In this document: positions 661-61,030 of the stretch, piece after piece
How positions within the stretch are numbered: position 1 is the first letter of the stretch
Layout: every line of letters starts with the position of its first letter
From: Saprospira grandis
GTDB taxonomy: Bacteria; Bacteroidota; Bacteroidia; Chitinophagales; Saprospiraceae
Direction: 5' to 3'
DNA: 64,000 nucleotides
Assembly (NCBI RefSeq): GCF_027594745.1
Contig: NZ_CP110854.1
Coordinates: forward strand, 1,052,241-1,116,240
Notes under the pieces: generated by a model
The model's input: only the letters and a program-made list of their open reading frames with translations
Databases searched by the model: none
Told to the model about the DNA's origin: nothing
Translations under genes and position numbers: made by a program

Positions 661-905
661 GATCCTTTATTTTTGGGGCGTTACTCCTTTCAGTCGTCGA
701 ACTGCGGCTTGCAGCCTTGTTGTCGCCTCGCTACGCTCGTCGGCGCTACGTTTACTCCCTACGGTCGTCGAACTGGCGCCCCTATAGGGGCTGGTTGTCG
801 CAGCTCGCTCTTCGCTCGGCCCTGCGGCGGCTTTGCCGCCTTGGTCTGGCCTAACGGCCACTGCTGCACATCGCTAGGCCAGCCCGCCCCTATTGGGGTT
901 TTTTC
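661..905 (+). repeat. REP/MITE-like mosaic intergenic repeat, F orientation, long variant (copy R1)
   Basis: Shared modules ttttggggc..., tcgtcgaactgcg, cgcagctcgct(c/a)ttcgctcggccctgcg, ggtctggcct(a/g)acggccac and catcgctaggcc. Closely similar to the copy at 58895..59160. Confidence 0.8.
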
Positions 906-915
906 ACTCCAAAAA

Positions 916-2190
916 ATGCTCAATCTACCAATTATGCCTAAAAGTCGACTCTTAGAAGCGCCCAAAAGCTTGGCTGGCGCCCAATACATTCAGCTCAACA
1001 GCTCCAAAAGCATCAGCAATCGCTTATTGATTATTCAGGCGATTATGGGCCAATTGGCGCCCCCAAAAAGCTTATCTAGGGCCAAAGACAGCCAGAGCTT
1101 GGTCCGACTACTACAGCAAGAAGAGGAAGAAATACTAGATGCCGAAGATGCAGGGACCTGTTTTCGCTTTCTCACGGCCTACCTTTGTCTCAACAACAAA
1201 AAGCAAGTGCTCACGGGTTCGGCTCGGATGCTAGAGCGGCCTATTGGCCCCTTGGTAGAAGCCCTGCGTAGCTTGGGCGCCCAAATTGACTACTTGGGCC
1301 AAGAGGGCTATCCCCCCTTGCAGATTGGGGCCTCTAGTTGGAAGGACACAGAAGAAATGCCTAGCTTGCGCATAGATGGCGGCATCAGCAGCCAGTATAT
1401 TTCGGCCCTCCTGCTTATTGCCCCTGCCCTACCGCAGGGACTAAAACTGCAACTAGAGGGGGAGATCATTTCTATGCCCTACATTCAGATGACCCTAGGC
1501 CTAATGGAGCAGTTTGGCATCGACTATCTGCAGGCGGGAAAAAGCTTTTTAATTGAGCCCCAAAACTACCAAGCTCCCCAAGAAGAATTTATTGTAGAAG
1601 GCGACTGGTCCGCGGCGGCCTACTACTATGCCTTAGTGGCCTTGGCCGAGCCTGGATTTAGCCTAAAGCTAGGGCAATTGCGGGCCAACTCCTTACAGGG
1701 AGATTCCGTCATTACCGAGCTGATGCAAAACTTGGGGGTAGTCAGTACATTTTTGCCCGAGGGACAGCTAAAGCTTCAAAAAACAGCGCAGCCGCTTCCT
1801 AAGGAACTGCGCTATGATTGTCGGCACTATCCCGATTTGGCCCAAACCCTAATGGCCATAGCAGCGGGCTTAGCTATTCCCTGCCAGCTTTTTGGTCTAC
1901 AGAGTTTGCGCATCAAAGAGACCGACCGTTTGGCGGCCATGAAAAACGAGTTAGAAAAGCTAGGGGCCGTAGTAGAAATTGGAGATGACTGGATGCATAT
2001 TAAGTCGGGAGTAAAAAGGGCCCAAAAAAAGCCCTTAATTAGTAGTTACAAAGACCATCGGATGCTCATGTCCTTGGCTCCCTTATCGCTTTTGCTTGGT
2101 CCATTAAAAATGGAGCAGCCCGAAGTTGTGGCCAAATCCTATCCCGATTTTTGGAGAGATTTGGGCCAATTGGGCTTTAAAATTGGCTAA
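916..2190 (+). CDS. aroA: 3-phosphoshikimate 1-carboxyvinyltransferase (EPSP synthase)
   Basis: Motifs KSISNRLLIIQA and DAGTCFRFLTAYL, length about 424 aa. The ORF-track start at 673 lies inside the repeat, so ATG 916 (MLNLPIMPK) was chosen. Confidence 0.85.
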   Translation: MLNLPIMPKSRLLEAPKSLAGAQYIQLNSSKSISNRLLIIQAIMGQLAPPKSLSRAKDSQSLVRLLQQEEEEILDAEDAGTCFRFLTAYLCLNNKKQVLTGSARMLERPIGPLVEALRSLGAQIDYLGQEGYPPLQIGASSWKDTEEMPSLRIDGGISSQYISALLLIAPALPQGLKLQLEGEIISMPYIQMTLGLMEQFGIDYLQAGKSFLIEPQNYQAPQEEFIVEGDWSAAAYYYALVALAEPGFSLKLGQLRANSLQGDSVITELMQNLGVVSTFLPEGQLKLQKTAQPLPKELRYDCRHYPDLAQTLMAIAAGLAIPCQLFGLQSLRIKETDRLAAMKNELEKLGAVVEIGDDWMHIKSGVKRAQKKPLISSYKDHRMLMSLAPLSLLLGPLKMEQPEVVAKSYPDFWRDLGQLGFKIG

Positions 2191-2252
2191 AAGCAGTAAG
2201 TTTTGGCCTTAAACCTCTAGTTTTGGGCCTTGTACCAAGCAGTTTATAAGAG

Positions 2253-3902
2253 ATGGCCATATTTAGTCCTTATGCGGAGCTCCTCCGCAACTTGATTCCC
2301 CAACTACAGAGCAGCCTAGCGAGCTATGCCGAGGCCGAGCGGCCTATTTTGGCAGCTCTCCTTGCGCAATGGGCCAGTTTTAAGGCCCTGCCCTTATTAG
2401 AAGAAGAGGAGATGCAGCTTTTGCGGGCGCAGTGGAAAAAGGGCGCGCAGTGGGGAGAAGAATTTGAGCAACTCTCTAGTTCTCTACAGGCTGTACATCT
2501 GCAACTGGGTTTATTATTGGCCGAGCTACAGCCCTCTTTTGCCCAAAAGCTAGAACTACAAAGCAAGGGGCCGGGGCTCAACCTTTGGCCCATGCAGCTC
2601 TCTTTTTGGGCCGAGCAGCTCCTGATTTACAAAAGAGACGGCAATGCCAAAGGCTTATCGGCCTCGGGGCAACTTTTGCTGGCCTATTTGGAGCAGCCCT
2701 TAAAGCGGCTACCTATTTTTAGGCAAAAAGCCCTCTCCTATATCCTCGATAGTTTTTTGGGGCCAGCGGCTAAGCAAAGCCTACTCTTAGATTTATTTAG
2801 TGAATTGGGGCTAAAGGCCAAGCTGGCCGAAAACTACCCCTTACTATTGGGCCAACTGCTCTTCTTGCCCCTGCTTCGGGAATTATGGGACAAACAATAC
2901 GACAGCCTAGGCAAAGAGCAGATAGATGATTGGGAAGAAAGCCAATTGATTTATCATCGGGAGAAAGAGCGGCCCCTCAACCAGCTCTACTATGGGCCTT
3001 CTGCTTGTGGAAAAACCCGGGCCGCTCGTTTGGAAGCCTTGAGCATTTGCGAGGGGCTGCCTTTGGTCCAAATAGAGCAGTTATCGACGGAAGAGATAGA
3101 GCAGCGTTTGGAAGAACAGCGGCAGGCGGGGCATTTGGCCATGATTGCCTTTCATCCCGCCATGAGCTATGAAGACTTTATGGAAGGGCTAAAGCCTCAG
3201 ATGCAAGGCAAGCAACTTCATTATGTATTAGAGGAAGGCTTATTTAAGCGCTTTGCCAAAGCCGCCTTGGCCCAGCCGCTCAAGCGTTTTGTGCTTATAA
3301 TTGACGAATTGAACAGGGCCGAAGTGGGGGCGGTATTTGGGGAGCTCCTTTCTTTATTGAGTGCAGAAAACCGTTTGGGAGGAAAAGCCCCCATGCGGCT
3401 AGTTCTCCCCTACTCCAAAGCGACTTTTGCCCTGCCCGACAACCTCTATATTCTGGCCAGCATGAATGAGGGCGACCGCAGTCTACAATCCTTAGATTGG
3501 GCCTTGCGGAGGCGTTTTCATGCCATAGCGGTACGGCCAGAGCCGCAACTATTGGGTGATTGCCAAGGTGTTGATTTGGCTCGGCTACTACAGGCCCTCA
3601 ACCAGCGGATTCGTTTGTATTTTTCGGCAGCGCAAGAGATTGGGCATGGCTACCTCTTAGGGATTCGGCAATTGGAGGAATTGAACCTTTGTTTTGCGCA
3701 TCGGATTATTCCCTTATTGGAGAGCTACGCCTATGGCGACCTTCGTCTGTTGGGGCCTATTTTGGGACAAGCCTTTATAGAAAGGCGGCGCTTGGGGCAT
3801 TCCTTGGCCTTTTATGGAGCCGAGCAGCAGGAAGAGCAATTTAGTTATCATCTTCGGTCTTTTCCGCTTGCAGCAAGCGCCTACAAACAACTATATGAGT
3901 AG
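2253..3902 (+). CDS. McrB-like AAA+ GTPase-domain protein with a Leu-rich helical N-terminal domain of unknown function
   Basis: Walker A GPSACGKT, LIIDELNRAEVGAVFGELLSLL, then ILASMNEGDRSLQSLDWALRRRF (McrB signature). No McrC-like ORF is adjacent. Confidence 0.6.
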   Translation: MAIFSPYAELLRNLIPQLQSSLASYAEAERPILAALLAQWASFKALPLLEEEEMQLLRAQWKKGAQWGEEFEQLSSSLQAVHLQLGLLLAELQPSFAQKLELQSKGPGLNLWPMQLSFWAEQLLIYKRDGNAKGLSASGQLLLAYLEQPLKRLPIFRQKALSYILDSFLGPAAKQSLLLDLFSELGLKAKLAENYPLLLGQLLFLPLLRELWDKQYDSLGKEQIDDWEESQLIYHREKERPLNQLYYGPSACGKTRAARLEALSICEGLPLVQIEQLSTEEIEQRLEEQRQAGHLAMIAFHPAMSYEDFMEGLKPQMQGKQLHYVLEEGLFKRFAKAALAQPLKRFVLIIDELNRAEVGAVFGELLSLLSAENRLGGKAPMRLVLPYSKATFALPDNLYILASMNEGDRSLQSLDWALRRRFHAIAVRPEPQLLGDCQGVDLARLLQALNQRIRLYFSAAQEIGHGYLLGIRQLEELNLCFAHRIIPLLESYAYGDLRLLGPILGQAFIERRRLGHSLAFYGAEQQEEQFSYHLRSFPLAASAYKQLYE

Positions 3903-4109: not shown

Positions 4110-4270
4110 CTAGGCCAAGGCTCATTAAAGGCCCGAAGGGCCTTTGGCCTAGCGATGTGCAGGGGTGGCCGAAGGCCAGACCGAAGCGCGCAGCGCTGAA
4201 GGGCCGAGCAGACCTGCGAGCCCCGAAACGTAGCGCCTGCCGCAGGCAGGAGGCCCCAAAAAACAAAAAA
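4110..4270 (-). repeat. REP/MITE-like repeat, R orientation (copy R2)
   Basis: Contains ggcctagcgatg, ggccgaaggccagacc, gggccgagcagacctgcgagcccc, ggaggccccaaaaaa. Confidence 0.8.
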
Positions 4271-4311
4271 GCCCCTACTTCATCAGTAGAGGCTATATTA
4301 TTTAGTGTTGT

Positions 4312-6114
4312 TTACTTCAGTTGGAAATCGGTCACCCGATAGCCTGGGCGGAGGGGGGAAGTTTCGATATCGGCGAAACGTTTGTGGATAGCGAAGCAGC
4401 TACTGGGCACACAGAGGAAGAGATAGGGTTGTTCTTCATGGATAATGGCTTGGGCGCGGAAATAGAGCTCCTTACGTTTTTGGGGATCGAGCGTAATGCG
4501 GATACTATCGATAATGCGGTCACATTCTTCATTTCGGAAGCCGATGCGGTTGCTGCCGCCATTTCGGTCTGAGGAAGAGTGCCAAGCCTGCTTAAGCTCG
4601 TCGAGATTGGGGCCTTGGGCCCAGGCCGAGCAGATGAGTTCGAACTCTCGGTTTTGGATATCCTTGACAAAGACGGGAAAATCGGCACTTTTGATTTTGA
4701 TTTCGATACCTAGGGCTCGGGCTTCTCCTTGGAGGAGCAGTCCAATATTTTTGCGGATATCGTTGCCTTGATTATACTTAAACTCAAGGCTTAGCTTTTC
4801 TAGTTTTCCGTTGATGCGTTTATCTAGAATTCCGTCATTATCGGAATCGGTCCAGCCGGCTTCTGTCAAGAGTTCTTTAGCTCTTTCTGGGTCATAGCTA
4901 AAGGGTTTAATCTGGTCATTATAGTGCTCCTTTTGGGGGTTGATCGGGCCGACGGTTTCGGTGGCTAGGCCTTCAAAGAGGACATCAATAATTTCTTGGC
5001 GGTTAATGATATGGGAGAGCGCTTGGCGGAGTTTTTTATCTTTTAGCTTAGGGTTGCGCAGATTGATTCCGATATAATAGTAGCCAAAAACGGGGGGCGA
5101 AGAGAGCTCAAAAAGATTTTGGAACTCTTGATCTTCTTTTAGGGCCTTAAACTTGACGGGTTTGATATTGTGTAGGACATCAATTTCCTCATTTCGGGCC
5201 ACGGTAATAGCGGTACTGGGGTCATTGACCACTTTGTGAATAATTTTTGTGGGATAAGCGACTAGCATGGGGTTTTTGGCCTCATTACCCCACCAATTTT
5301 CTTTGCGTTCGAGGATAATATGTTGGCCGTTGCTCCATTCTACAAAGCGGTAAGGGCCAGATCCGACCACTGTTTCCTTACTAAACTTGGGGCTATTAAA
5401 ATTTTGGGCAAATCGTTCGAGGTTTGCATTTTTGTTGGCGGCTTCATAATCCATCTGGTTGAGTTCGGCCAGGCTTACCTTTTTCATTAGGCCTTCGGGG
5501 TCATAGACATACTCGGGCATAATGTGCATATCGCCGGCAGATTCTTCGGCGATAAAGTAGCGTTGTTTAGAGAAGATAGTAAATTCTCTTTCGTTATTGG
5601 GGGAAATATAGATCGAGTCGATAAACTCATAATAGGGGCGTCGGCTACCCGATTCTACTAGGGGGTTTTTGATTGCTTTGATGGTAAAGAGATAATCATA
5701 GGCCGTAACGGCTTGGCCGTTATCCCATTTGGCGTCGGGTCTAATCTCGAAGTGTAGCGACATACCGCCGGCATAGGGGCCTTCTTCTAGTTCTCTGACA
5801 TCGGGCATTTTGAGGGCGAGTTGGGGCACTAATTTGAGATCTTCGGGGTGAAACTCCAACAAGCGAGAGAATATGTTGTTCTGAATATAAGTAGCTGCGG
5901 CCCCTTGAGAGGTTACAGGATTTAAGCCATCGGGGTCATCTAGTTCCCAGACCGTTACGGAAGGATCCTTCATTTTATTGCTACTTTGGCTTTCCTTTAC
6001 TTCCTGATCGGCTTCTCCGTTTGTTTCGGGAGAGGAAGGCTGGCAACTGCCAAAACATAAACTTAGCCCGAGCAGGCCTAAGATTGTTTTTTTTCTGATA
6101 TTCATATTGGTCAT
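4312..6114 (-). CDS. ABC transporter substrate-binding lipoprotein, family 5 (peptide/nickel type)
   Basis: Lipoprotein signal LGLSLCFGSC. Overall ~600-aa layout is consistent with the family-5 solute-binding proteins (OppA/DppA-like). Confidence 0.75.
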   Translation of the reverse strand: MTNMNIRKKTILGLLGLSLCFGSCQPSSPETNGEADQEVKESQSSNKMKDPSVTVWELDDPDGLNPVTSQGAAATYIQNNIFSRLLEFHPEDLKLVPQLALKMPDVRELEEGPYAGGMSLHFEIRPDAKWDNGQAVTAYDYLFTIKAIKNPLVESGSRRPYYEFIDSIYISPNNEREFTIFSKQRYFIAEESAGDMHIMPEYVYDPEGLMKKVSLAELNQMDYEAANKNANLERFAQNFNSPKFSKETVVGSGPYRFVEWSNGQHIILERKENWWGNEAKNPMLVAYPTKIIHKVVNDPSTAITVARNEEIDVLHNIKPVKFKALKEDQEFQNLFELSSPPVFGYYYIGINLRNPKLKDKKLRQALSHIINRQEIIDVLFEGLATETVGPINPQKEHYNDQIKPFSYDPERAKELLTEAGWTDSDNDGILDKRINGKLEKLSLEFKYNQGNDIRKNIGLLLQGEARALGIEIKIKSADFPVFVKDIQNREFELICSAWAQGPNLDELKQAWHSSSDRNGGSNRIGFRNEECDRIIDSIRITLDPQKRKELYFRAQAIIHEEQPYLFLCVPSSCFAIHKRFADIETSPLRPGYRVTDFQLK

Positions 6115-7156: not shown

Positions 7157-8593
7157 TTACTTACGCACCTGACTGGCGTCAATGGGTAAATCTGGAGAGT
7201 AGACCATAATATCGTTGCATACTCCAGAAGACAAACGCTGGGCAAAACCATTGTACTTATTGCCCTTAAAGAGCTTATGGATACGTACATAAGTTGCTCC
7301 TGGGTTGGCGCTTTTCCCTTTGGGGTCTAGCTTGAAGGTAAAGGTTTTATCCCAGAGCTTACGCTCTTTTCTAGGGAGGTCGGCATAGTTATCTGGCTTA
7401 AACTTAAGGGTCACCACATATTCCTTATAGCCAAATAGGCTTTCCACTTCGGTGGGGCCTTCTTCTACAGAGATGACCTTGATTGTGCCCGAGATTTTCT
7501 CTTCATAGACACAGCTTTCTCTACGGATTTCGTTGGTTACCTGCTCTCGAATAGCGGCCTTACGGGCCTCTAGGGCTGCTTTTTCTGCGGCCAATTTCTC
7601 GGCTAGTTCATCTCGCAGTTCTTCTTCTTTGGCCTTAATTTCCTTACGGCGTTGCTCTTCTAATCTCTTGCGTTCTTTGGCGGCCTGTTTTTCGCGCTTA
7701 ATAGCGTTTTTCTGGTCCAATTCGGCTTGTTTGGCGGCTTCAGCCTTGGCTTTGGCGCGCTCTTCTTTTTCAATTTGCGCCCGCAAAGCGTCTAGATCCA
7801 TTTCGTCGGGGCTTTTTGCAATGCCCTCCTTTTCGCGGAGTTCGGCCTCTACTTTTTTGCGCAATTCTTCTTCAGAAGGCAAATTCAGGTCTACTTCAGG
7901 CTCTTCCTCTTTGGGATCCTCTTCCTCTTTGGGATCCTCTTCTTTTGGTCCTTCTTCCTCTTTGGGCTGTTCTTCTGGAGCAGTTTCTGGGGGACGGTTT
8001 CCGCTGGCCTGAGTGGCTGCTTCTTCGGCCATAGCAATGCCCTTGGCTTCATTTACTTCCTTCTCTTTTTTATAGAGTTTTTCGGCAGCAATTTGAATTT
8101 TATAGGCCTTGATGCTATCCTGTGCCTCAAACAAATCATTAGGGATCCCCATTGACTTATAGGTATATTGTTCACGGCAGGTTTTATCATCGGTCTGCAA
8201 AAATTCCATGGCAAATTTTTGGCCCTTATGCACATAATAGTGCTTAAGGTATTTAGGGCCAACAGGCAGGCGGTCATAGCCACTTCGCAAGAAAAAGTCA
8301 AAGCTATTCTCGCCAAAATCAGCCATTAGTTGCTGCCCTTTTTCCATGGGCGTAAATTTAAATTTCACGCTGTATTCATCATAGCCCAAAGCACTTTCTG
8401 ACTTGCTCCGCGTCTTTTCTACTTCCGTAATTTCCGCCAAGCCTTTTAGCACTTCATACTCGCAACCTTGCACGGTCCGAACTTCATTATTGTTTCTATA
8501 GCTCGCTTTTTTTGCCGACTGCGCCCAAAGTCCAGAGGTCTGAACAAGCAAGAGCAGCAAAAAACTGGCTATCCATAAGGGTGATTTTCTCAT
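7157..8593 (-). CDS. secreted hypothetical protein: two homologous Cys-containing ~110-aa domains flanking a K/E-rich (PKEEE/EEKAR) low-complexity coiled-coil region
   Basis: Signal peptide MRKSPLWIASFLLLLLVQTSGLWAQ. N-domain ...C.YEV...GYDEYSVKFKF... parallels C-domain ...CVYEE...GYKEYVVTLKFKP.... In-frame DNA tandem repeats at about 7890-7980. Confidence 0.6.
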   Translation of the reverse strand: MRKSPLWIASFLLLLLVQTSGLWAQSAKKASYRNNNEVRTVQGCEYEVLKGLAEITEVEKTRSKSESALGYDEYSVKFKFTPMEKGQQLMADFGENSFDFFLRSGYDRLPVGPKYLKHYYVHKGQKFAMEFLQTDDKTCREQYTYKSMGIPNDLFEAQDSIKAYKIQIAAEKLYKKEKEVNEAKGIAMAEEAATQASGNRPPETAPEEQPKEEEGPKEEDPKEEEDPKEEEPEVDLNLPSEEELRKKVEAELREKEGIAKSPDEMDLDALRAQIEKEERAKAKAEAAKQAELDQKNAIKREKQAAKERKRLEEQRRKEIKAKEEELRDELAEKLAAEKAALEARKAAIREQVTNEIRRESCVYEEKISGTIKVISVEEGPTEVESLFGYKEYVVTLKFKPDNYADLPRKERKLWDKTFTFKLDPKGKSANPGATYVRIHKLFKGNKYNGFAQRLSSGVCNDIMVYSPDLPIDASQVRK

Positions 8594-8744
8594 ACCAATA
8601 CATTTTATTATCCAAGTGAATCTAAACTAAAGATGCGCTAAACTTCTTCTATAAGAACAGGATGCACCACTTTTCTTTTTGGTTGTTATCTGATCCCAAA
8701 ATTACTAATTTGTAAGCATTTTATCGGCTTCAGTTATTTTTTTT

Positions 8745-8905
8745 GTTTTTTTGGGGCCTCCGCTGCGGCTTCGCCTTGCGGCGCTATGTTTCGGGGCTCG
8801 CAGGTCTGCTCGGCCCTGCGCCAAATTCGCTACGCTCATTTGGCTGGGTCTGCGGCTTCGCCGCCCCCCTCCACATCGCTAGGCCAATTGGTCCCGCCCT
8901 ACCCT
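8745..8905 (+). repeat. REP/MITE-like repeat, F orientation (copy R3)
   Basis: Modules ttttggggcctccgctgcggcttcgccttgcggcgcta...ggggctcgcaggtctgctcggccctgcg...catcgctaggcc. Confidence 0.8.
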
Positions 8906-8934
8906 ATCTTTTTTAGCTAAAATCTTCTCCGATC

Positions 8935-9702
8935 ATGTCTACTACGCCCAATTTACTTGCCGTTAGCGAATACTTTTACAGCCTTCAGGGAGAGGGCCAA
9001 ACGATGGGAGTGCCAGCCATTTTTCTCCGCCTCTCGGGCTGCAACCTCATTTGTGGGGGCAAAGGGGCCGAAAAAGACGGCCAACTGCATGATGGCGCTA
9101 GCTGGATTTGCGACACGATGGAGGTCTGGATGAAGGGCGAAAGCCTTCCCTTTGCCCAATTGCTGCAGCGCCTAGACGATGAGTTGCAATTTAGCCAGCG
9201 CCTAGCCCAGGGGGTGCATTTGGTCATTACGGGAGGAGAACCGCTCTTGCAAGATAAGCGCATTGCGGCCTTTTTGGCCTTTGTAGAAGCAGAGCGGCAA
9301 GGACTTCGTCCTATTATTGAGGTAGAAACCAATGGTTGTTTTCTGCCCTCTGCTCCCCTATTAGAAAGGGTCAGTTACTGGAATTGTTCCCCAAAACTCC
9401 AAAACTCGGGCATGCCAGCCAAAAAACGCATTGTTCCTAAGGCCCTAAAGGGCTTGGCCCAAGAATCTGGAACCATCTTTAAGTTTGTGATCGCTCAAGC
9501 TAGTGACTTTGAAGAAATACAAAGCGATTTCTTAGACAAAGGCCTCCTCAAAAAGGAGCAATTGGTCCTTATGCCCGCTGCCGATAGCCTAGCCGCCTTG
9601 CTCGAACGCAATAAAATGGTGGCCGAAATTTGTATTCGGGAGCAAATTAGAATGTGTAGCCGCCTACATGTAGAAATTTGGGACCAACTAACAGGCGTTT
9701 AA
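8935..9702 (+). CDS. queE: 7-carboxy-7-deazaguanine synthase (radical SAM)
   Basis: YFYSLQGEGQTMGVPAIFLRLSGCNLICGG matches the QueE N-terminal motif. About 255 aa. Confidence 0.75.
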   Translation: MSTTPNLLAVSEYFYSLQGEGQTMGVPAIFLRLSGCNLICGGKGAEKDGQLHDGASWICDTMEVWMKGESLPFAQLLQRLDDELQFSQRLAQGVHLVITGGEPLLQDKRIAAFLAFVEAERQGLRPIIEVETNGCFLPSAPLLERVSYWNCSPKLQNSGMPAKKRIVPKALKGLAQESGTIFKFVIAQASDFEEIQSDFLDKGLLKKEQLVLMPAADSLAALLERNKMVAEICIREQIRMCSRLHVEIWDQLTGV

Positions 9703-9707
9703 AAAAA

Positions 9708-9880
9708 AATTGGCCCAAGGCGGGTCGGCCCTTTGGCCGAAGGCCAAACGGCCTAGCGATGCGGCGGGGTGGCCGTCAGGCCAGACCAAGGAGCCGAAGG
9801 CGACGCAGGGCCGAGCAGACCTGCGAGCCCCAAAGCGTAGCGCCGCAAGGCGAAGCCGCAGCGGAGGCCCCAAAAAAATA
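9708..9880 (-). repeat. REP/MITE-like repeat, R orientation (copy R4). It is the near-exact reverse complement of R3 and lies on the other side of queE.
   Basis: The reverse complement aligns module by module with 8745..8905. Confidence 0.8.
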
Positions 9881-9918
9881 GCCTCCTAGTCATGATATCT
9901 AGCAGGCTATTTCGGTAA

Positions 9919-10827
9919 CTATTGGCCAACTCCGCCAAAATCATCGTCAAAGGTATCTCCATTGCTGGACTCATCTTGCTGTTCAAACTCTTGGCAGACC
10001 TCTGGTTTTTCGGCCAGCAGCCAGATGTCAATTCCGGCGCCCATACTGGCCCGAGAAGCGGCAGAAGGCGACTGTCGGACCACATAAGCATTCATAGTAT
10101 CGATGATATTTGGGCCATAGCTCACCGTGCCCAAATAAAAAGCATTGCCCTTAATGATAAACTCGGCTTCTGAGAAGGTTTTGCAGCTCAGGTCGGGGAC
10201 CAATTTTTTGCCGCTATCTTTTCCTTTATAGAGCTCTAGGTCTACTTTATCGCCTTGTTTGAGCTGATAGGGTTGCTTGGGTCGGCGTTCTCCCTTACTG
10301 GGGTCGGCCTCCTTAAAGATCAGGGTTTTATCTTTGGTATAAGCGGCGGCCACCGTATTTTCTCCGCCTCCATCTACATACTTCAGTTGGCCAATTTTTA
10401 GGCCGAGCGCCTTAAATTTCTTCTCGACAAAATTGAGCGGGCGGCCAATAATCTCATTATAATAAATATTGACGGGGGGAGCGCTATTGGCGTTTACGGT
10501 CAGGTAGATGCTTCGGTTGGGCTTCACTCGGCTATTGGCCTCAGGCGATTGCTTGAGGATAATGCCAGGATTTCGTTTTGCGTTATAAATCGTATCGGTA
10601 ACCACCAGGCGGAGCTTTCGGCTTTTGAGTTGTCGCTCGGCATTTTTGACCGAAAGGCCTTTAATATCGGGTACTTCAATAGACTCATTATGGCGGGTAT
10701 AAGAGGGGAGAATGAGCCAAAAGAGCAGGACAAAGCTCAGCAGCGCAATGCCAATCATCATCCCCATATTCTTGAGGAAGAGCTTAGAGCTTAGAAAATA
10801 GTATAAAAACTTAAAAAAAGATTTCAT
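9919..10827 (-). CDS. PASTA domain-containing membrane protein
   Basis: N-terminal TM helix (MMIGIALLSFVLLFWLIL). PASTA-like segments IEVPDIKGLSVKNAERQL... Confidence 0.6.
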   Translation of the reverse strand: MKSFFKFLYYFLSSKLFLKNMGMMIGIALLSFVLLFWLILPSYTRHNESIEVPDIKGLSVKNAERQLKSRKLRLVVTDTIYNAKRNPGIILKQSPEANSRVKPNRSIYLTVNANSAPPVNIYYNEIIGRPLNFVEKKFKALGLKIGQLKYVDGGGENTVAAAYTKDKTLIFKEADPSKGERRPKQPYQLKQGDKVDLELYKGKDSGKKLVPDLSCKTFSEAEFIIKGNAFYLGTVSYGPNIIDTMNAYVVRQSPSAASRASMGAGIDIWLLAEKPEVCQEFEQQDESSNGDTFDDDFGGVGQ

Positions 10828-12732: not shown

Positions 12733-12767
12733 TAGCTACTGGAATCTATTTCAGTAGCTTTTTTATT
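12733..12767 (+). terminator. intrinsic terminator
   Basis: Stem agctactg/cagtagct followed by ttttttatt. Confidence 0.6.
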
Positions 12768-12910
12768 TGGGGCTGCCCCGCCCTGCGGGCGGGTCGGGCT
12801 GTCTCAGGGCTCGCAGGTCTGCTCGGCCCTTCAGCGGCTTTGCCGCTTCGGTCTGGCCTTCGGCCCCCCTTGCCCATCCCTCAGCCGGGGCGCTGCGCGC
12901 CCTCTAGGTC
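12768..12910 (+). repeat. REP/MITE-like repeat, F orientation (copy R5)
   Basis: tttggggctgccccgccctgcgggcgggtcgggctg...gctcgcaggtctgctcggccc...ggtctggccttcggcc. Confidence 0.8.
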
Positions 12911-15760: not shown

Positions 15761-15938
15761 TTGTTTGCAAACTAACTATAAATACAAAATAAGGTTGAAT
15801 TTCTATGTGGATATTAGTTTTTTTTAACAGCCTTTTCTCTGCCCGATGGCCTTAGGCTAAATTTGTGGCTTCCGCAAAAAGGCCCTATCTTTGGCAGCGA
15901 TAATTTTGATCAAAAAATCGAGAATTGCGCATTCAGCT

Positions 15939-16568
15939 ATGAAAAAACCTTATGTTATAGGGATTACCGGGGGAAGTGGCTCGGGCAAAACCACTTTTTT
16001 ATCTGCTTTAGAACAAGAATTTGGCAAAGAGCAAATTTGTATCCTTTCTGCGGACCACTACTACCGCCCCAGAGAAGAACAAAAAGCCGATGAACAGGGA
16101 GTCCTCAATTTTGACCTCCCCTCTTCTATTAATGCCGAAGAACTAGAGCGAGATGTCCGCCAGCTGATTGCAGGCCAAGATATAGAACGAGAGGAATATA
16201 CCTTCAATAATCCTTTGGTCCAACCCAAAATGCTTAAATTTAAGGCGGCGCCCATCCTTATTTTAGAGGGTATTTTTGTCTTTCATTATCCTCAAGTCGC
16301 CGACCTGATCGACCTCAAGGTCTTTCTCTACACCAGCGAGTCTACGGCCCTTTCTCGCCGAATCAAGCGGGACCGCATTGAGCGCAATTATCCCCTAGAA
16401 GATGTGCTTTACCGCTATGAGCATCATGTGATGCCCACTTACCGACAGTATATTGCGCCCATTAAGGAGCAGGCCGATTTACTCATCAATAATAACCATA
16501 AGTTTGATGCGGGTCTTCAGGTCTTTAAGGGCTTTATCAATAATTATCTGCAAGAAGTAGAGGATTAA
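15939..16568 (+). CDS. udk: uridine kinase
   Basis: MKKPYVIGITGGSGSGKTTF P-loop. Start at ATG 15939. Confidence 0.85.
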   Translation: MKKPYVIGITGGSGSGKTTFLSALEQEFGKEQICILSADHYYRPREEQKADEQGVLNFDLPSSINAEELERDVRQLIAGQDIEREEYTFNNPLVQPKMLKFKAAPILILEGIFVFHYPQVADLIDLKVFLYTSESTALSRRIKRDRIERNYPLEDVLYRYEHHVMPTYRQYIAPIKEQADLLINNNHKFDAGLQVFKGFINNYLQEVED

Positions 16569-16569: not shown

Positions 16570-16735
16570 TTTTTTTGGGGCCTGCGGGCCCCTTTTGCCT
16601 TGCTGCGCTGCGGCAAGGGCCCGCCGGGCTGTTGCGGGGCTCGCAGGTCTGCTCGGCCCTGCAGCCGCCTGCGGCGGCTTGGGTCTGGCCTGCGGCCCCC
16701 CCTACACATCCCTAGGCCGGGGCCATTTTTTTCAG
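16570..16735 (+). repeat. REP/MITE-like repeat, F orientation (copy R6)
   Basis: ttttttggggcctgcgggcc...ggggctcgcaggtctgctcggccctgcagcc...ggtctggcctgcggcc...catccctaggcc. Confidence 0.8.
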
Positions 16736-16764
16736 GCTGCTCTTTACTCCCCAACCCTTTGCCC

Positions 16765-17979
16765 ATGTTTTCACGCCTTTTTTCTGCTCCGCCCTCGGCC
16801 TTTTCGGCTGTTAGTACCTTGATTGTCAAAGTGACTTATCGTTGCAATTTAGATTGTTTGTATTGCTATGAGAAAGTAAGCAAAACGGGCCAAGATATGT
16901 CTATTGAGCAGTTTAAAGAGCTGGTAGATTTGAGTTTGGGCCAAACTTCTTCTCCTCAACTCACTTTTCTTTTTCATGGGGGCGAGCCTACCCTCTTGCC
17001 CATTCCTTGGTATGAGGAGGGCCTAGATTATGCCTTGGCCCAGGCCAAAAAATGGGGAAAAACGGTTCATTTTGCCATGCAAAGCAATTTGGTCCGTCTA
17101 AAAGAGGAGTATATTCAGTTATTTCAGCGCTATAAGATAGCCTTGGGGGTCAGTTTGGACCAGCCCGTTTTCCTGCTAGACGACAGCCAGCGAGGAGGCG
17201 AGACCAAGGTCTTTAAGAACTTTAAACGCCTACAGGCCGCCAAGGTCAAAGCGGGGGTTTTGGCCACCATCAACAGCAGCAACTACCCCAACTTTTATAC
17301 CCTTTGCGAATGGCTGTGGAGCGAGGCCAAGCAGCGCTCTTTTAAGGCCAATGTGGTCACGCCAGTGGGGGCTGCCCATGGGCAGCCCCCACTGCAGGCC
17401 GAGCAAATTTTTATGGCCCAAAAAGCCATTATTGACTATATGATAGCGACCCAAGGACAGGCCCTCATAGAGAGTAATATTGCCTTGGAGTTGGGGCGTT
17501 ATTTTGAGCCAGAGCAGGCGCAAAGCACCCTTTGCCATGAAAAAACCTGTGGGGCGGGCCGTTCGGCCTTGGGGATTACGCCAGAGGGGCATTTATTGCC
17601 TTGTGGGCGCTTTGCTTGGAACGAGCCTGCTTACTATTTGGGCCATCTTTCTGAGCAGCGGCAAGCCAGCCGAAAAGAGAAAAAGCAATTGGCCCAAAAA
17701 ATTGCCGACTTTCATGCGCAAAAGCCAGAAAACTGGTACGATTGCGAAAGTTGTCCCGCCCAAAAAGTCTGCGGTTATGGCTGTCAGGCCTTCATTCTCC
17801 GCTCTGAGGAGCAAGCCAATCTAGACTGCCTGCCGACCAAAATGCGTTTTGCTTATTATCAGGAAAAAGAAGTGGCTTTAAAGGCTGTTTTTGACAACAT
17901 CCAAAAGCGGCAGGCGGGTCCCAGTCGCCAATTTCGGATTAAGGACCAAAACGGGCAATGGAAAAGCTACAAACTTTAG
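16765..17979 (+). CDS. radical SAM / SPASM-domain protein (anSME-like maturase family)
   Basis: YRCNLDCLYCYE (CxxxCxxC). C-terminal Cys clusters CHEKTCGAGRS...LLPCGRF and CESCPAQKVCGYGCQA. The ORF-track N-terminus lies in a repeat, so ATG 16765 was chosen. Confidence 0.7.
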   Translation: MFSRLFSAPPSAFSAVSTLIVKVTYRCNLDCLYCYEKVSKTGQDMSIEQFKELVDLSLGQTSSPQLTFLFHGGEPTLLPIPWYEEGLDYALAQAKKWGKTVHFAMQSNLVRLKEEYIQLFQRYKIALGVSLDQPVFLLDDSQRGGETKVFKNFKRLQAAKVKAGVLATINSSNYPNFYTLCEWLWSEAKQRSFKANVVTPVGAAHGQPPLQAEQIFMAQKAIIDYMIATQGQALIESNIALELGRYFEPEQAQSTLCHEKTCGAGRSALGITPEGHLLPCGRFAWNEPAYYLGHLSEQRQASRKEKKQLAQKIADFHAQKPENWYDCESCPAQKVCGYGCQAFILRSEEQANLDCLPTKMRFAYYQEKEVALKAVFDNIQKRQAGPSRQFRIKDQNGQWKSYKL

Positions 17980-17989: not shown

Positions 17990-18145
17990 ACAGCCTTTAG
18001 CCTGAAAAGGGGAGATGAGCGGCCCAGCGCTGCGCAGCGGTGGCCGCAGGCCAGACCCAGCGGGCGAAGCCCGCGCAGGGCCGAGCAGACCTGCGAGCCG
18101 CGGAGCATAGCGGCGGCCAGCGAAGCTGGCCGCGGGCCCCAAAAC
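17990..18145 (-). repeat. REP/MITE-like repeat, R orientation (copy R7)
   Basis: gggccgagcagacctgcgagccgcgg...gcgggccccaaaaccc. Confidence 0.8.
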
Positions 18146-21988: not shown

Positions 21989-22075
21989 TTTAAACGGGAT
22001 TTAAACGGGATTTAAACGGGATTTAAACGGGATTTAAACGGGATTTAAACGGGATTTAAACGGGATTTAAACGGG
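21988..22075 (+). repeat. perfect tandem direct repeat, 8 x 11 bp (ATTTAAACGGG)
   Basis: Counted directly. It begins at the last base of the preceding stop codon and is followed by about 240 bp of AT-rich DNA. Confidence 0.95.
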
Positions 22076-22323
22076 AGACTAACGTAAATACCTGAAAATC
22101 AAAAATATAAGCCTCGTTTAATTTGGTTTAAAAAAATTTAATTTAATCGAATTAGCTATTTTTAAATGGTAAAAATTTAAGCCTCAGGAATCGACTAATT
22201 AGTCAACTAATCAAAACATTTTTACACAAAGCGCTGCATTTTACTAGAAAATTAGGGTATAATCATCCGATATTTTCATATATAGGCAAAGCAAAAATCA
22301 GAACCACCAAATATCAATGATAA

Positions 22324-27914: not shown

Positions 27915-27916
27915 CT

Positions 27917-35510: not shown

Positions 35511-35589
35511 TGCAGGTTTAAACCTACAGCCACAATGGTATTGCTCCGCAATGCTAGATGAATGAGGGCTAAAGCCCTCTTAAAATTAA

Positions 35590-42954: not shown

Positions 42955-43200
42955 TTCTGGGCCTTTCTTTTGGATGGAGCAGGGCGCGAAGCGCCCGCAG
43001 GCTGAGCTGCCGAAGCAGGGCCGCCGAAGGCGGCAGACCAAAGCGCTGAAAGCGCTGCAGGGCCGAGCAAACCTGCGAGCTGCGAAGGGAGCGACCCGAC
43101 CGATAATTCATGAGGGTTTTAACCCTCATTTTGTAGCGCTTCGCAAAGCGATACCGCTTTGCGCTGGGTTTCAAGCCGGCGGAGGGGCAGCCCCAAAAAA
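42955..43200 (-). repeat. composite repeat: REP-like module (R orientation) plus a hairpin-rich PAL module (copy R14)
   Basis: gggccgagcaaacctgcgagctgcg followed by atgagggttttaaccctcat and cgcaaagcgataccgctttgcg palindromes, ending ggcagccccaaaaaaag. Confidence 0.8.
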
Positions 43201-44594: not shown

Positions 44595-44614
44595 AAGTTG
44601 TTGTTGTTTTTCTA

Positions 44615-44870
44615 TTTTTTTTGGGGCTGCCCCTTCCGCCGGGTTAAAACCCAGCGCAAAGCGGTATCGCTTTGCGAAGCAATACAAAATGAGGGTTAAA
44701 ACCCTCATGAATTATCGGTCGGGTCGGGCTGTGTCGCAGCTCGCTGATCGCTCGGCCCTGCGCTTTTTCGCTACGCTCAAAAGCTAGGTCTGGCCTTCGG
44801 CCACTGCTGTCCATCCCTCAGCCTGCGGGCGCTTCGCGCCCTGTCCCCTGCAATTGGACCAATTAGGCCT
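44615..44870 (+). repeat. composite repeat: PAL module plus REP-like module, F orientation (copy R15). It is an inverted copy of R14 on the other side of the M20 gene.
   Basis: cccagcgcaaagcggtatcgctttgcgaagc...aatgagggttaaaaccctcatgaattatcggtcgggtcgggctgtgtcgcagctcgctgatcgctcggccctgcg. Confidence 0.8.
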
Positions 44871-46274: not shown

Positions 46275-46395
46275 GGCTTTTTTCGCTAGGTTAAAACCCA
46301 GCGCAACAAAGGTATCGCTTTGCGATGACTTATAAATGAGGGTTGAAACCCTCATGAATTTAGCGGCCGCCCCAAATTGAAGGGCGGCCGCGGGC
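46275..46395 (+). repeat. PAL-module repeat copy with a short REP tail (copy R16)
   Basis: cccagcgcaacaaaggtatcgctttgcgatgac...aatgagggttgaaaccctcatgaatt...gcgggccccaaagc. Confidence 0.7.
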
Positions 46396-50654: not shown

Positions 50655-50905
50655 CTTTATTTTGATCTAGTTTTGGGGCTGCCCCTTCCGCTAGGTTGAA
50701 ACCCAGCGCAAAGCGGTATCGCTTTGCGAAGCTACACAAAATGAGGGTTGAAACCCTCATGAATTATCGGTCGGGTCGGGCTGTGTCGTGGCTCGCAGGT
50801 CTGCTCGGCCCTGCAGTTTTTTCGCTACGCTCAAAAACTTGGGTCTGCGGCTGCGCCGCACCACTTTCCATCCCTCAGCCTGCGGGCGCTTCGCGCCCTG
50901 CTAAA
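50655..50905 (+). repeat. composite PAL + REP repeat, F orientation (copy R17)
   Basis: Near-identical to R15. Includes ggctcgcaggtctgctcggccctgcag. Confidence 0.8.
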
Positions 50906-51669: not shown

Positions 51670-51818
51670 CTCGAGGCCCGAAGGGCCTCTTTTTTGGCCT
51701 AGCGATGCGGCGGGGTGGCCCGAAGGGCCAGACCAAGGAGCCGCAGGCGACGAAGGGCCGAGCAAGCCTGCGAGCCCCAAAGCGTAGCGCCCGCCGAAGG
51801 CGGGAGGCCCCAAAACAG
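51670..51818 (-). repeat. REP/MITE-like repeat, R orientation (copy R18)
   Basis: ggcctagcgatgcggcggggtggcccgaagggccagacc...gggccgagcaagcctgcgagcccc...gggaggccccaaaac. Confidence 0.8.
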
Positions 51819-52574
51819 TTAATGTCCCCTTTTTTCCATAAGGATCACATAGCGCATAAATACGCCCCAGGCCAGTAATTTGCAGACGATAAAGCCCACT
51901 TTGCCGTCGCGGAAACCCTGTTGAATGATGTAGTGCTTGAAGAAGCGGAAAGCGGGTTTGAGGTAGAGGTGGAAAAAGCCCACTTTGGGGGTTTTGCTAG
52001 CATAATCGCCGGCGGACCAATGGGCGTAGCGCTCCATTTTGGCCATAAAATGGCGCATACTTTTGAAGGTATAGTGCAAAAGGCGGCCCTTTAGCCAAGC
52101 GACTTTTCCCTTAGTGATAATTTCGGCATGCACCTCTTTTTCTTCATAGCGGCAAAGGTCGCGTTTAAAAAAGCGGATGACGGCATCATTTTGCCAGCCT
52201 GAAAAGCGGACCGCCTGTCCCATAAAATGGTTATCGCGGCCCATCCAGTAGGCAATAGGTCCTTGGGGGTCTTCGGCTTGGCTCATAATGGCCTTAATTT
52301 CGGCGACTAGATTTTCGCTAGGGCGTTCATCGGCATCTAGCAGCAGGATCCATTCATTTTTGGCTTGGGGAATCGCCCAATTTTTCTGGCTAGCCGAATT
52401 GCCATATTCTCTTTGAATAATTCGGGCGCCGGCTTTTTGGGCCAGGGCCAGGGTATCGTCCGTACTAAAAGAATCGACGACCAGCAGCTCATCGGCCCAG
52501 CTGACCAAAGGCAATAACTCTCGGAGATTATCGGCTTCGTTGAAAGTGGGAATCAGTACAGTAAGCGGGCGCAT
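51819..52574 (-). CDS. glycosyltransferase family 2 protein
   Basis: VLIPTFNEADNLRELL...VVDSFSTDDT...LLDADE (DxD). Confidence 0.75.
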   Translation of the reverse strand: MRPLTVLIPTFNEADNLRELLPLVSWADELLVVDSFSTDDTLALAQKAGARIIQREYGNSASQKNWAIPQAKNEWILLLDADERPSENLVAEIKAIMSQAEDPQGPIAYWMGRDNHFMGQAVRFSGWQNDAVIRFFKRDLCRYEEKEVHAEIITKGKVAWLKGRLLHYTFKSMRHFMAKMERYAHWSAGDYASKTPKVGFFHLYLKPAFRFFKHYIIQQGFRDGKVGFIVCKLLAWGVFMRYVILMEKRGH

Positions 52575-58894: not shown

Positions 58895-59160
58895 TTGCTT
58901 ACTGTTTTTTTGGGGCCTCCCGCCTGCGGCGGGCGGTTACTCCCTTCGGTCGTCGAACTGCGAACTAAAGTTCTTGTTGTCGTTCCGCAGCTCGCTGCTA
59001 TTTTGGGGCCTCCGCCTCCCTTCGGTCGTCGGCGCTACGTTCCGCAGCTCGCTATTCGCTCGGCCCTTCGCCAGCTTCGCTGGCTCGGTCTGGCCTGACG
59101 GCCACTGCTGCACATCGCTAGGCCTGCGGCCCTTCGGGCCTGTAGGACGAAAAAGTTCTA
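58895..59160 (+). repeat. REP/MITE-like repeat, F orientation, long variant (copy R19, similar to R1)
   Basis: tcggtcgtcgaactgcgaact..., cgcagctcgctattcgctcggccc, ggtctggcctgacggccactgctgcacatcgctaggcc. Confidence 0.8.
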
Positions 59161-59166
59161 TTGTCT

Positions 59167-60083: not shown

Positions 60084-60527
60084 TTGTGTATGCGCCTTTC
60101 TTGCGGCCTAGGGACAAGCCCTGAACAGTTTCGTGAACTGGTTCGGTGCGGAGGTGAACCAGTTCGGTCTGGAGGTGAACTAGTTCGGTCTGGAGGTGAA
60201 CCAGTTCGGTCTGGAGGTGAACCAGTTCGGTCTGGAGGTGAACCAGTTCAGTCTGGAGGTGAACCAGTTCGGTCTGGAGGTGAACCAGTTCAGTCTGGAG
60301 GTGAACCAGTTCGGTCTGGAGGTGAACCAGTTCGGTCTGGAGGTGAACCAGTTCAGTCTGGAGGTGAACTGGTTCGGTGCGGAGGTGAACCAGTTCGGTC
60401 TGGAGGTGAATCAGTTCGGTCTGGAGGTGAACCAGTTCGGTCTGGAGGTGAACTAGTTCGGTCTGGAGGTGAACCAGTTCGGTCTGGAGGTGAACCAGTT
60501 CAGTCTGGAGGTGAACCAGTTCGGTAA
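60084..60527 (+). CDS. possible repeat-protein ORF (about 19 x GGEPVRS heptads). Coding status uncertain.
   Basis: ATG-initiated, stop TAA at 60525-60527 inside a terminator-like hairpin. Two of three forward frames stay open trivially because the unit is 21 bp. Confidence 0.25.
   Translation: MCMRLSCGLGTSPEQFRELVRCGGEPVRSGGELVRSGGEPVRSGGEPVRSGGEPVQSGGEPVRSGGEPVQSGGEPVRSGGEPVRSGGEPVQSGGELVRCGGEPVRSGGESVRSGGEPVRSGGELVRSGGEPVRSGGEPVQSGGEPVR
60121..60527 (+). repeat. tandem direct repeat, about 19 x 21 bp (GGAGGTGAACCAGTTCGGTCT) with point variants (cag/cgg, tct/tgc, cca/cta/tca)
   Basis: Read directly. The period is constant at 21 bp throughout. Confidence 0.9.
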
Positions 60528-60558
60528 AATACCGAACTTTTGCCCTTTTTGATTTTAT
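60518..60558 (+). terminator. intrinsic terminator-like hairpin at the end of the 21-bp repeat tract
   Basis: agttcggta-aaa-taccgaact followed by tttgccctttttgatttt. Confidence 0.55.
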
Positions 60559-60889
60559 TACATTATTTTCATTTTTAACAACTCCCTAACATTTGGGGGC
60601 AAAATTCTATTCCTGCAGCCTAAAAGCCCCTACTTTAGACAAAGGAGCTATTTGGTTTTTTAGGTCCTGCAGCTTTTAAGGGGCAGTATTATCCATAGTT
60701 TACCCCATAGCAAGAAGGGAGGCATACTAAACCCAATAAAATGGGCCGAAGGTTAAAACCTTCGGCCCATAACTAGAGGAAAACAGAGCGATTTAAGGCT
60801 AAAAGCCTTAACTCAATGCGGGTTTTACCCCTCATTTTATAAAAACATTGCGGAGCAATACCCTATTTGCTGCGGGTTTCAGCCCGCAG

Positions 60890-61030
60890 TTATGGCCGAA
60901 GGCCAAACGGCCTAGCGATGCGGCGGGGTGGCCGAAGGCCAGACCGAGGCGGCAAAGCCGCCGAAGGGCCGAGCAGACCTGCGAGCCCCAAAGCGTAGCG
61001 CCCGCCGAAGGCGGGAGGCCCCAAAAAAAA
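60890..61030 (-). repeat. REP/MITE-like repeat, R orientation (copy R20)
   Basis: ggcctagcgatgcggcggggtggccgaaggccagacc...gggccgagcagacctgcgagcccc...gggaggccccaaaaaaaa. Confidence 0.8.

Follow-up and report, generated by a model that had tools for sequence, protein, structure and literature searches.

A REP/BIME-like candidate family of structured DNA repeats in Saprospira, inherited vertically and possibly shuffled by gene conversion

A family of intergenic repeats was characterized in a 64-kb stretch of the Saprospira grandis chromosome (contig NZ_CP110854.1, positions 1,052,241 to 1,116,240; this whole stretch is referred to below as the window). Its units, which measure about 120–140 nt, consist of an invariant scaffold that bears hypervariable hairpins. 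We give about even credence to the interpretation that these units constitute a structured DNA repeat family of Saprospira that resembles the REP, BIME and REPIN elements, is inherited vertically and is shuffled by gene conversion. The family looks like a previously undescribed Bacteroidota counterpart of these proteobacterial repeats; no description of Saprospira repeats or RAYTs was found in the literature and supplements that were searched. The window itself is ordinary chromosome, with aroA, queE, def, ruvX, rimP-nusA-infB, recO, peptidases, a TonB receptor and other genes. Its QueE is 98% identical to that of S. grandis DSM 2844, with which the window is syntenic at ~93–95% nucleotide identity.

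Core copies were recovered by iterative nhmmer searches that were seeded with window copy 8745–8905 and run to convergence, which yielded 19 copies in the window (E-values 1.5e-10 to 3e-31; Table 1). The 22-mer GCTCGCAGGTCTGCTCGGCCCT occurred 14 times in the window at up to 3 mismatches and was absent from 100 dinucleotide shuffles. A direct-repeat search of the window returned several overlapping families, all of which were assembled from common modules, and a radical-SAM gene was found bracketed by two oppositely oriented copies (8650–9950). A preliminary description of the window had listed 20 members that shared a set of modules, differed from each other by module presence and covered about 5% of the DNA. 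A family member was present at all 20 positions, 19 of these being core copies and one (46275) a remnant. The shared modules were likewise found, namely TTTTGGGGC(C/T), the GGGGCTCGCAGGTCTGCTCGGCCCTGCG core with its variant GCAGCTCGCTATTCGCTCGGCCC, GGTCTG+GCC..GGC, CATC(G/C)CT(A/C)(G/A)GCC and an optional insert, PAL, with two perfect hairpins. Module presence did differ between copies and was even polymorphic between strains. The cores together amount to 2.3 kb (3.6% of the window), and coverage reaches about 5% once the 3′ hairpins, PAL and a further module, TACTCC, are counted. Perfect covarying helices, conservation of unit positions, tail-to-tail doublets and a core common to Lewinellaceae, all of which are described below, had not been brought out.

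Table 1. Family members in the window and the state of their orthologous sites. Positions are those of the window; H1, H2, H3, P1 and P2 are the hairpins and long-range helices of the unit.
Position	Strand	Core start and strand	Description	Orthologous sites
661–883	+	796+	Compound copy; T-run/GGGGC 5′ end, TACTCC modules 682–704 and 753–775, core 796–880, P2 form GCAG/CTGC	DSM 2844: without both TACTCC modules
4110–4271	−	4146−	Core 4146–4261 and 3′ hairpin (AAAGGCCC-TTC-GGGCCTTT); 5′ T-run abuts terminator-like hairpin of gene 4312–6114(−)	DSM 2844: H1 hairpin replaced
8745–8885	+	8749+	Core copy between divergent genes, upstream of queE	DSM 2844: extra 42-nt TACTCC module; metagenome contig L126: H2 and H3 swapped
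9708–9885	−	9750−	Core 9750–9875 and 3′ hairpins	DSM 2844: ~100 nt of interior replaced (H3, H2, mini-hairpin, both P2 sides) and extra half-element
12765–12886	+	12765+	Core copy, type B ends (GGGGCTG.../...CAGCC)	DSM 2844: 121/122 identical
16570–16718	+	16573+	Core copy; start 2 nt past stop codon of 15891–16568	DSM 2844: only H2 cassette (with flanking bases) swapped, remainder identical
18021–18144	−	18021−	Core copy; P2 form GCGG/CCGC	
27924–28271	+/−	27924+, 28148−	Tail-to-tail doublet, 27924–28058(+) with 28148–28271(−)	CCB-QB6: right arm orthologous
35353–35759	+/−	35353+, 35631−	Tail-to-tail doublet, 35353–35486(+) with 35631–35759(−); 144-nt spacer with further hairpins	CCB-QB6: both arms orthologous
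38732–38869	−	38732−	Core copy; adjoins tRNA-Arg(TCT); 5′ end 3 nt from stop codon; mini-hairpin covaries (ACAG..CTGT)	CCB-QB6: orthologue in contig L130, 3725–3847
41068–41191	+	41068+	Core copy	DSM 2844: orthologous; CCB-QB6: orthologous, with P2, H1 and H2 swapped
43012–43190	−	43012−	Core copy with PAL (43102–43182) nested in H1	DSM 2844: without PAL
44615–44823	+	44718+	Core copy with PAL (44635–44712) nested in H1	DSM 2844: without PAL
46275–46393			Remnant; degenerate PAL fused to truncated (−) 5′ end and H1; no core	DSM 2844: length differs
50671–50880	+	50770+	Core copy with PAL (50690–50768) nested in H1; P2 form GTGG/CCAC	DSM 2844: without PAL
51696–51815	−	51696−	Core copy; 5′ end 4 nt from stop codon of 51819–52574(−)	DSM 2844: orthologous
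58906–59124	+	59000+	Compound copy; 5′ half-element with TACTCC (58906–58999), then full unit 59000–59124	DSM 2844: orthologous
60909–61040	−	60909−	Core copy; T-run after terminator-like hairpin	

Read with its T-run first, a unit starts with (T)n GGGGC-NN, followed by a variable hairpin (H1). Next comes the core, which is made up of CGCTAYG or GGGTCGGGCTG, four variable bases, CTCGC, a mini-hairpin that reads GCAGGTCTGC or a variant of it, and CTCGGCCCT(G/T)C (also written CTCGGCCCTKC). The 3′ part consists of a variable hairpin H2, the linker TNGGTCTG (T(N)GGTCTG), a variable hairpin H3, C(A/C), four variable bases and CATC(G/C)CT-NN-GCC, and one or two extra hairpins are usually found 3′ of the unit. 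The stretch of core that is invariant comprises 22–40 nt. Variation is concentrated in the stems: H2 showed 194 distinct sequences among 290 copies, in the form of perfect palindromes of 4–11 bp set between a conserved C...T mismatch, and H3 occurred in 40 distinct forms among 278 copies.

Two long-range helices of 4–5 bp, the strands of which lie 60–110 nt apart, tie this scaffold together. P1 joins the unit termini (GGCNN with NNGCC); its variable pairs occurred in four complementary combinations (CT/AG, TG/CA, TT/AA and CC/GG), and the termini GGGGCNN/NNGCC were complementary in 98% of cells, with inverted repeats of just 5–7 bp. P2 is formed by the tetranucleotide that precedes CTCGC and the one that follows H3, and was represented by at least seven complementary forms (GGGG/CCCC, GCAG/CTGC, GTGG/CCAC, AGGG/CCCT, GCGG/CCGC, GCCG/CGGC and CTAG/CTAG). 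An RNAalifold consensus on a MAFFT alignment contained H2 and H3, missed P1 and P2, and joined the core to the 5′ GGGGC with no covariation to support this pairing; an explicit, hand-derived structure of 22 pairs was therefore tested on 100 distinct copies (2139 cells). Pairing was observed in 95.5% of these cells, compared with 73.5% in column shuffles (none of 500 reached the observed value) and at most 55% with slid partners. Both sides had changed in 458 cells versus 135 expected, and wobble pairs were found in 3 of the 2139 cells. Kinship of the copies inflates the shuffle statistics but cannot create complementarity, and the slid controls have equal kinship. The conserved secondary structure for which the preliminary description had suggested looking was thus found, as a multi-helix fold with covariation. 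Judging from these substitutions, one strand of the unit is predicted to fold into a closed multi-branch structure via P1 and P2, and long-range helices of this kind fit poorly with a role in duplex DNA only. None of the units was overlapped by any Rfam 15 model, even at E≤1, and the sole match at gathering threshold in the window was a tRNA-Arg.

Loops and mismatches were used to assign the fold to a strand. In 231 of 278 copies the H3 loop was TTC, TGC, TAC, TGAC or TAAC; the complements of these loops never occurred. On the bottom strand the same loops read GAA, GCA, GTA, GTCA and GTTA, closed by C:G, and thereby match the GCGNAGC/GCGNNAGC motif, a mini-hairpin DNA of extraordinary stability (PMC13037366). 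The few transition mismatches found in H2, H3 and P2 were of the A:C type in ~32 cells and of the G:T type in ~2–6 cells; this excess of A:C on the top strand therefore corresponds to G:T wobbles on the bottom strand. In addition, the minimum free energy calculated for DNA was lower for the bottom strand in seven of eight copies. These features suggest that the folded form is probably single-stranded DNA of the bottom strand (5′-GGCC..CCCCAAAA) with G(N)NA loops.

A scan with a degenerate core, for which one genome per species was used, gave at least 120 matching 8-kb blocks. Among the matches listed, 106 blocks were from S. grandis DSM 2844, 12 from two Lewinellaceae metagenome-assembled genomes (MAGs) and two from Saprospiraceae MAGs. 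The DSM 2844 blocks listed were spread over 0–4.4 Mb of the chromosome scaffold and also included a 56-kb scaffold, so that the family is dispersed chromosome-wide and a local segmental duplication, which the preliminary description had kept in view, was refuted. A hidden Markov model (HMM) detected 289 copies in 848 kb of DSM 2844, a density that is biased upward by the choice of blocks that held a copy; the unbiased density from the window was 19 copies per 64 kb, or about one unit per 3 kb. Since the window density and the DSM 2844 block count both point there, the total is probably of the order of 1,000–1,500 copies per 4.4-Mb genome. Equal density was observed in Saprospira sp. CCB-QB6 (seven copies in 21.5 kb), and the Lewinellaceae MAGs contained a shorter variant that kept the 5′ half and the central core. 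No copy was present in the 20 kb examined of Aureispira anguillae or in the 20 kb examined of another Saprospiraceae MAG, and a scan of viral contigs for the core gave no matches. In DSM 2844, 150 copies lay on the plus strand and 134 on the minus strand, with a split of about 50:50 in each 400-kb bin, and no replication-strand bias was found along the chromosome.

Units occupied intergenic DNA without regard to the direction of transcription. Between tandem genes, 58 had the same orientation as the genes and 57 the opposite one, and stop codons flanked the unit about as often on one side as on the other (84 versus 80). Intergenic regions held 0.65 units when convergent, 0.40 when divergent and 0.31 when tandem. 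Where a stop codon lay on the side of the 5′ end, the median distance to it was 19.5 nt, and distances of 2–20 nt were frequent. Among 149 single units, 104 had their 5′ rather than their 3′ end closer to the flanking gene, and part of this polarity arose because the extra 3′ hairpins fall outside HMM coverage. Many units come right after a terminator-like hairpin, the T-tract of which runs into the T-run of the unit. Insertion inside genes, as in the Rickettsia RPEs, was considered and rejected: the 16 apparent cases among 308 copies all proved to be spurious open reading frames (ORFs) of 115–184 amino acids or false N-terminal extensions. The preliminary statements that copies lie exclusively between genes, in both orientations, and that they give rise to such false ORFs and extensions were thus upheld. 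ORFs overrunning units in the window were 673–2190, 16600–17979, 26781–28049 and 43206–44708, and public gene calls extend across units as well, in contigs L123 and L133 and in CCB-QB6, where the gene at 3184–3852 of contig L130 takes in the unit at 3725–3847; overruns of this kind therefore introduce false C- or N-terminal extensions into annotated proteins.

Units also tended to occur in pairs. Among pairs closer than 500 bp, 32 were tail-to-tail, with the T-run/GGGGCC ends facing outward, one was head-to-head and two were tandem, and the doublets took in 64 of 308 copies (~21%). A doublet that acts as one long hairpin or that has a conserved central region was rejected on account of the heterotypic arms and unrelated spacers.

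Orthologous sites were compared in DSM 2844 for window positions 1–19.6 kb and 40.6–58.9 kb (third-codon identity 86%) and in CCB-QB6 for 28–41 kb (third-codon identity 70%). A unit was present at the same site for all 14 window units compared with DSM 2844 and for all five compared with CCB-QB6, and L126, a metagenome contig whose QueE is 89% identical, likewise carried a unit upstream of queE. Orthologous units were bimodal: they were either ~99% identical, with ~1 difference per 100 nt, far below third-codon divergence, or block-replaced. Replaced blocks ranged from H1 alone (4146) or H2 alone (16570) to ~100 nt that included both sides of P2 (9750). Uniform hyper-conservation of the units was dropped as an explanation, since whole-element identity between species was 81%, close to the 77.5% of other intergenic DNA. 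In these alignments the scaffold is conserved and the cassettes are replaced, a pattern that ectopic gene conversion between paralogues would be expected to leave. Gene conversion moves whole hairpins as units, and for this reason would yield both mosaicism and lasting complementarity of the helices. It leaves the origin of stem diversity unexplained. Quasipalindrome template-switching is an established mutational route (PMC7202029).

Two modules add a further layer of variation. PAL is a three-hairpin insert of 76–80 nt in the H1 loop, which occurred in three window units within 8 kb (at 43.1, 44.7 and 50.7 kb) and in the remnant at 46.3 kb, was absent from the DSM 2844 orthologues, which have a simple H1, and was rare elsewhere (three copies in 848 kb of DSM 2844). 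Its clustering in neighbouring units suggests local spread, by short-range gene conversion or by local hopping. The TACTCC module (GGTTACTCCCTTYGGTCGTCGAACTG-hairpin-CTTGTTGTCG, about 42 nt) takes the place of the CGCTAYG linker; it was common, with 56 copies in the DSM 2844 blocks, and polymorphic between strains. Because PAL and TACTCC are polymorphic between strains and unit sites are constant, the layer that is currently dynamic is that of modules and cassettes, not that of unit positions.

A synteny breakpoint between S. grandis and CCB-QB6 (contig L130, 14345–15603, against window 28049–28276 and 9919) fell exactly in an intergenic region with units on both sides. At this breakpoint in CCB-QB6, a gene for a 902-amino-acid Ddl-like protein is followed by a PASTA gene, and in the window these two genes are 18 kb apart. 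Units may mediate rearrangements.

In the mechanism that we propose for a REP/BIME/REPIN-like DNA repeat family, a protein that acts in trans and is encoded at another locus would recognise the units by their invariant scaffold; the leading candidate is an HUH/Y1 enzyme of the RAYT kind, specific for single strands. It would be this protein that once dispersed the units, in many cases as tail-to-tail pairs whose T-run ends pointed outward. The copies of today would owe their intact and mosaic state to frequent ectopic conversion among ~1,000 copies, with the hairpin arms kept perfect by transfer of whole hairpins and possibly also by quasipalindrome template-switch correction. A role for the host, such as hairpin punctuation at gene ends, would be secondary and is unproven. 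A TnpA_Y1/RAYT subclass, 2.6, which is found mostly in Bacteroidetes, is bordered by 'atypical secondary structures' with further occurrences in the genome (PMC6006769), and this subclass offers the most concrete lead to a candidate enzyme.

Several observations weigh against this proposal. As the preliminary description had already stated for transposases, Pfam searches of the window ORFs gave no transposase, integrase or HUH domain, and a crude six-frame regular-expression search of ~1 Mb of Saprospira DNA, about a quarter of one genome, gave no ORF with an HUH...Y motif. IS200/IS605-type elements of single-stranded DNA are usually replication-strand biased, and the units show an even strand split. 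Presence/absence polymorphism of whole units was seen in none of the 19 orthologous comparisons, and transposition itself is thus without demonstration. Arms of doublets are heterotypic, their spacers (50–370 nt) are unrelated, and they lack the long hairpin of a classical REPIN. Assignment of the fold to the bottom strand is based on loop identity and on ~35 mismatch cells that are not independent. Moreover, functional RNAs more typically contain four-helix junctions with long-range pairs than do the known DNA substrates of transposases. Thermodynamic z-scores calculated for individual copies were weak (0 to −3.4); they were not used as evidence for structure because GC-rich shuffles also fold well.

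The main rival, which we regard as unlikely while giving it serious weight, is that the units are cis-acting structured RNAs in neighbouring mRNAs or in small RNAs, serving as 3′-end stabilisers, as processing or termination signals or as protein-binding motifs. Covarying long-range helices with conserved unpaired linkers are the usual signature of functional RNA, and the short distance from the 5′ end to stop codons, the many copies right after a terminator-like hairpin and T-run, the enrichment in convergent over tandem regions and the very low rates of point substitution in unconverted orthologues would all agree with such a role. Random orientation to genes, the near-absence of G:U pairs and the lack of any Rfam match at E≤1 argue against a cis-acting RNA that serves neighbouring genes. 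Copies also occur in divergent promoter regions, and on inspection neither a consistent promoter nor a U-tract downstream of the fold was seen. Neither strand has loops of a kind that is stable in RNA, whereas those of the bottom strand are stable DNA loops of the G(N)NA type. Small RNAs with their own promoter and uptake sequences were dropped as explanations on grounds of distribution, orientation and lack of a promoter motif. A more far-reaching proposal, which we consider improbable, dispenses with selfish repeats altogether and takes the units for ~1,000 copies, each maintained individually, of a structured nucleic-acid motif of a new kind. This motif would be a closed junction of four helices with an invariant core of 40 nt that Saprospiraceae and Lewinellaceae share, read in its single-stranded form by a dedicated protein and punctuating nearly every third intergenic region, with cassettes that are actively diversified and exchanged. 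The dedicated protein could be a new domesticated single-strand DNA enzyme, or the reader could be an RNA-binding or ribozyme-like system.

Mobility by a conventional transposase received still less credence and is doubtful at best. According to this explanation, the units would be miniature inverted-repeat transposable elements (MITEs), that is, non-autonomous deletion derivatives of a DDE-type insertion sequence (IS) with short terminal inverted repeats (TIRs), that transpose at present or did so recently. Units do have TIRs of 5–7 bp (GGGGCCT...AGGCC) that covary between subfamilies, as well as the size, high copy number and intergenic location of MITEs, and the nested PAL and TACTCC modules are polymorphic between strains. 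Tail-to-tail doublets with outward (T)nGGGGCC ends could even represent the full-length element, but their spacers are unrelated. No empty site was found among 19, even against the species at 70% third-codon identity; no duplicated flank was visible in 19 copies, whose exact ends are not fixed by an empty site; and neither the window nor ~1 Mb of related DNA yielded an IS with these ends. In addition, the structure of P2 and H1–H3 is conserved, and a DDE transposase would have no need of this. The preliminary description had named mosaic REP/BIME-type elements and non-autonomous MITEs side by side. Its mosaic part stood, in that linkers alternate with palindromes and modules are optional, and its MITE part was not supported, with 19 of 19 orthologous sites occupied. 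Of low probability, finally, is a double-stranded architectural site, maintained by host selection alone, at which a nucleoid-associated protein, gyrase or a similar factor binds the scaffold, or which serves in cruciform or supercoil management. Orientation independent of transcription and replication, conserved unit positions, regular genome-wide spacing of about one unit per 3 kb that extends to the 56-kb scaffold, and retention of the invariant 22–40-nt core as far as Lewinellaceae are in keeping with such a site, and perfect Watson-Crick palindromes form equally on both strands. Against it, covariation of P1 and P2 across 60–110 nt is difficult to account for unless a single strand folds, the loops and mismatch classes are strand-asymmetric and point to one strand, and there is no known binding protein. 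An architectural function is compatible with a REP/BIME/REPIN-like repeat family and does not exclude it.

Among known repeats, pneumococcal BOX, Neisseria Correia (CREE) and enterobacterial ERIC/IRU elements are modular, structured intergenic repeats of 100–200 nt whose mobilising enzyme is uncertain. Saprospira units resemble them in being modular, in a length that varies with module presence and in stable predicted folds. These families have TIRs or simple long hairpins, with Correia elements showing TIRs and a TA target duplication. We know of none with an invariant scaffold, hypervariable perfect stems and covarying long-range helices, nor of any with G(N)NA-looped hairpins on one strand. 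Integron attC sites such as the Vibrio VCRs (~125 nt) share with the units their size, a conserved structure, a location directly after genes and a variable interior between conserved ends; they are recognised as a folded bottom strand, the form that is probable for the units too. However, attC sites form same-orientation arrays next to intI with promoterless cassettes, whereas Saprospira units are scattered among housekeeping genes in either orientation, lack the R/L box consensus and are not accompanied by an integrase in the window. The dispersed distribution in both orientations and the missing integrase led us to drop an attC interpretation.

Likeness to REP and BIME elements lies in the extragenic location, in hundreds to thousands of copies in both orientations, in palindromic units that alternate with conserved non-palindromic linkers and optional modules, and in the frequent placement at gene 3′ ends, with convergent enrichment and positions kept between strains. 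Differences concern the unit itself. A REP is a single imperfect palindrome of 20–40 bp, whereas the Saprospira unit of 120–140 nt contains three to four hairpins in addition to P1 and P2, with stems that are perfect and hypervariable and linkers that are invariant. CTAC and CGTC strings are located in linkers of the Saprospira unit (GCGCTACG, GGTCGTCGAAC) rather than at the heads of hairpins, as GTAG/CGTC are in REPs, and the hosts are Bacteroidota (Saprospiraceae). With the REPINs of Bertels and Rainey, the family shares the preference for inverted doublets (32 tail-to-tail versus one head-to-head), vertical inheritance at orthologous sites and the presence of a population of sequence variants in one genome. 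Vertical inheritance and long persistence have been described for REPINs. In contrast to REPINs, only ~21% of the Saprospira copies lie in doublets, the arms of which are of mixed subtypes, separated by unrelated spacers of 50–370 nt and without a long hairpin, and the regular-expression search of ~1 Mb of Saprospira DNA gave no RAYT. Membership of REP/BIME proper fails on the definition of the unit, and membership of the REPINs on the doublet hairpin.

Some further features of the window were noted. A non-repeat divergent region upstream of queE (8594–8744; contig L123, 9618–9770; contig L126, 420–570) was ~90–95% conserved, far above other intergenic DNA, even in the contig with an 89%-identical QueE. 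It gave no Rfam match and may serve in regulation or encode a small RNA or leader that is not annotated. At 60133–60525 (+), just upstream of the unit at 60909, a 21-nt tandem repeat in perfect phase (GTGAACCAGTTCGGTCTGGAG, 18.7 copies, 93% matches) encodes a 7-residue protein repeat in a 147-amino-acid ORF (60084–60527) that gave no Pfam match; the repeat contains GGTCTGG, which is also found in the unit linker. A perfect 11-nt tandem repeat at 21988–22076 (ATTTAAACGGG, 8.1 copies, 100% identity) begins at the stop codon of a Schlafen/AlbA_2-HATPase_c_4 gene (20360–21988). This region has the lowest G+C content of the window (0.37 versus ~0.47), and the gene may be acquired or related to defence. 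At 7899–7976, an imperfect 18/33-nt tandem repeat (CTCTTCCTCTTTGGGATC) inside a gene for 478 amino acids (7157–8593, −) is likely a low-complexity protein repeat. Logan short-read assemblies of runs that contain Saprospira (L121, L122, L124, L125 and L127–L129) yielded single-gene contigs of ~0.9–1.1 kb, at least one of which (L121) runs into a unit.

Interspersed palindromic repeats have been well studied in proteobacteria and hardly in Bacteroidota. In Saprospira, the family described here makes up ~4–5% of a genome, is a source of false ORFs and N-terminal extensions in annotation, fragments short-read assemblies and probably depresses the quality of MAGs. With ~1,000 paralogues in one genome, which combine an invariant scaffold, perfect yet hypervariable helices, conserved positions and covarying long-range pairs, it provides an unusually clean natural experiment in which ectopic gene conversion, the maintenance of palindromes and the strand and form in which a repeat is read become measurable. 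If a cognate enzyme exists, the family would represent a new partnership of repeat and enzyme outside the proteobacterial RAYT systems.

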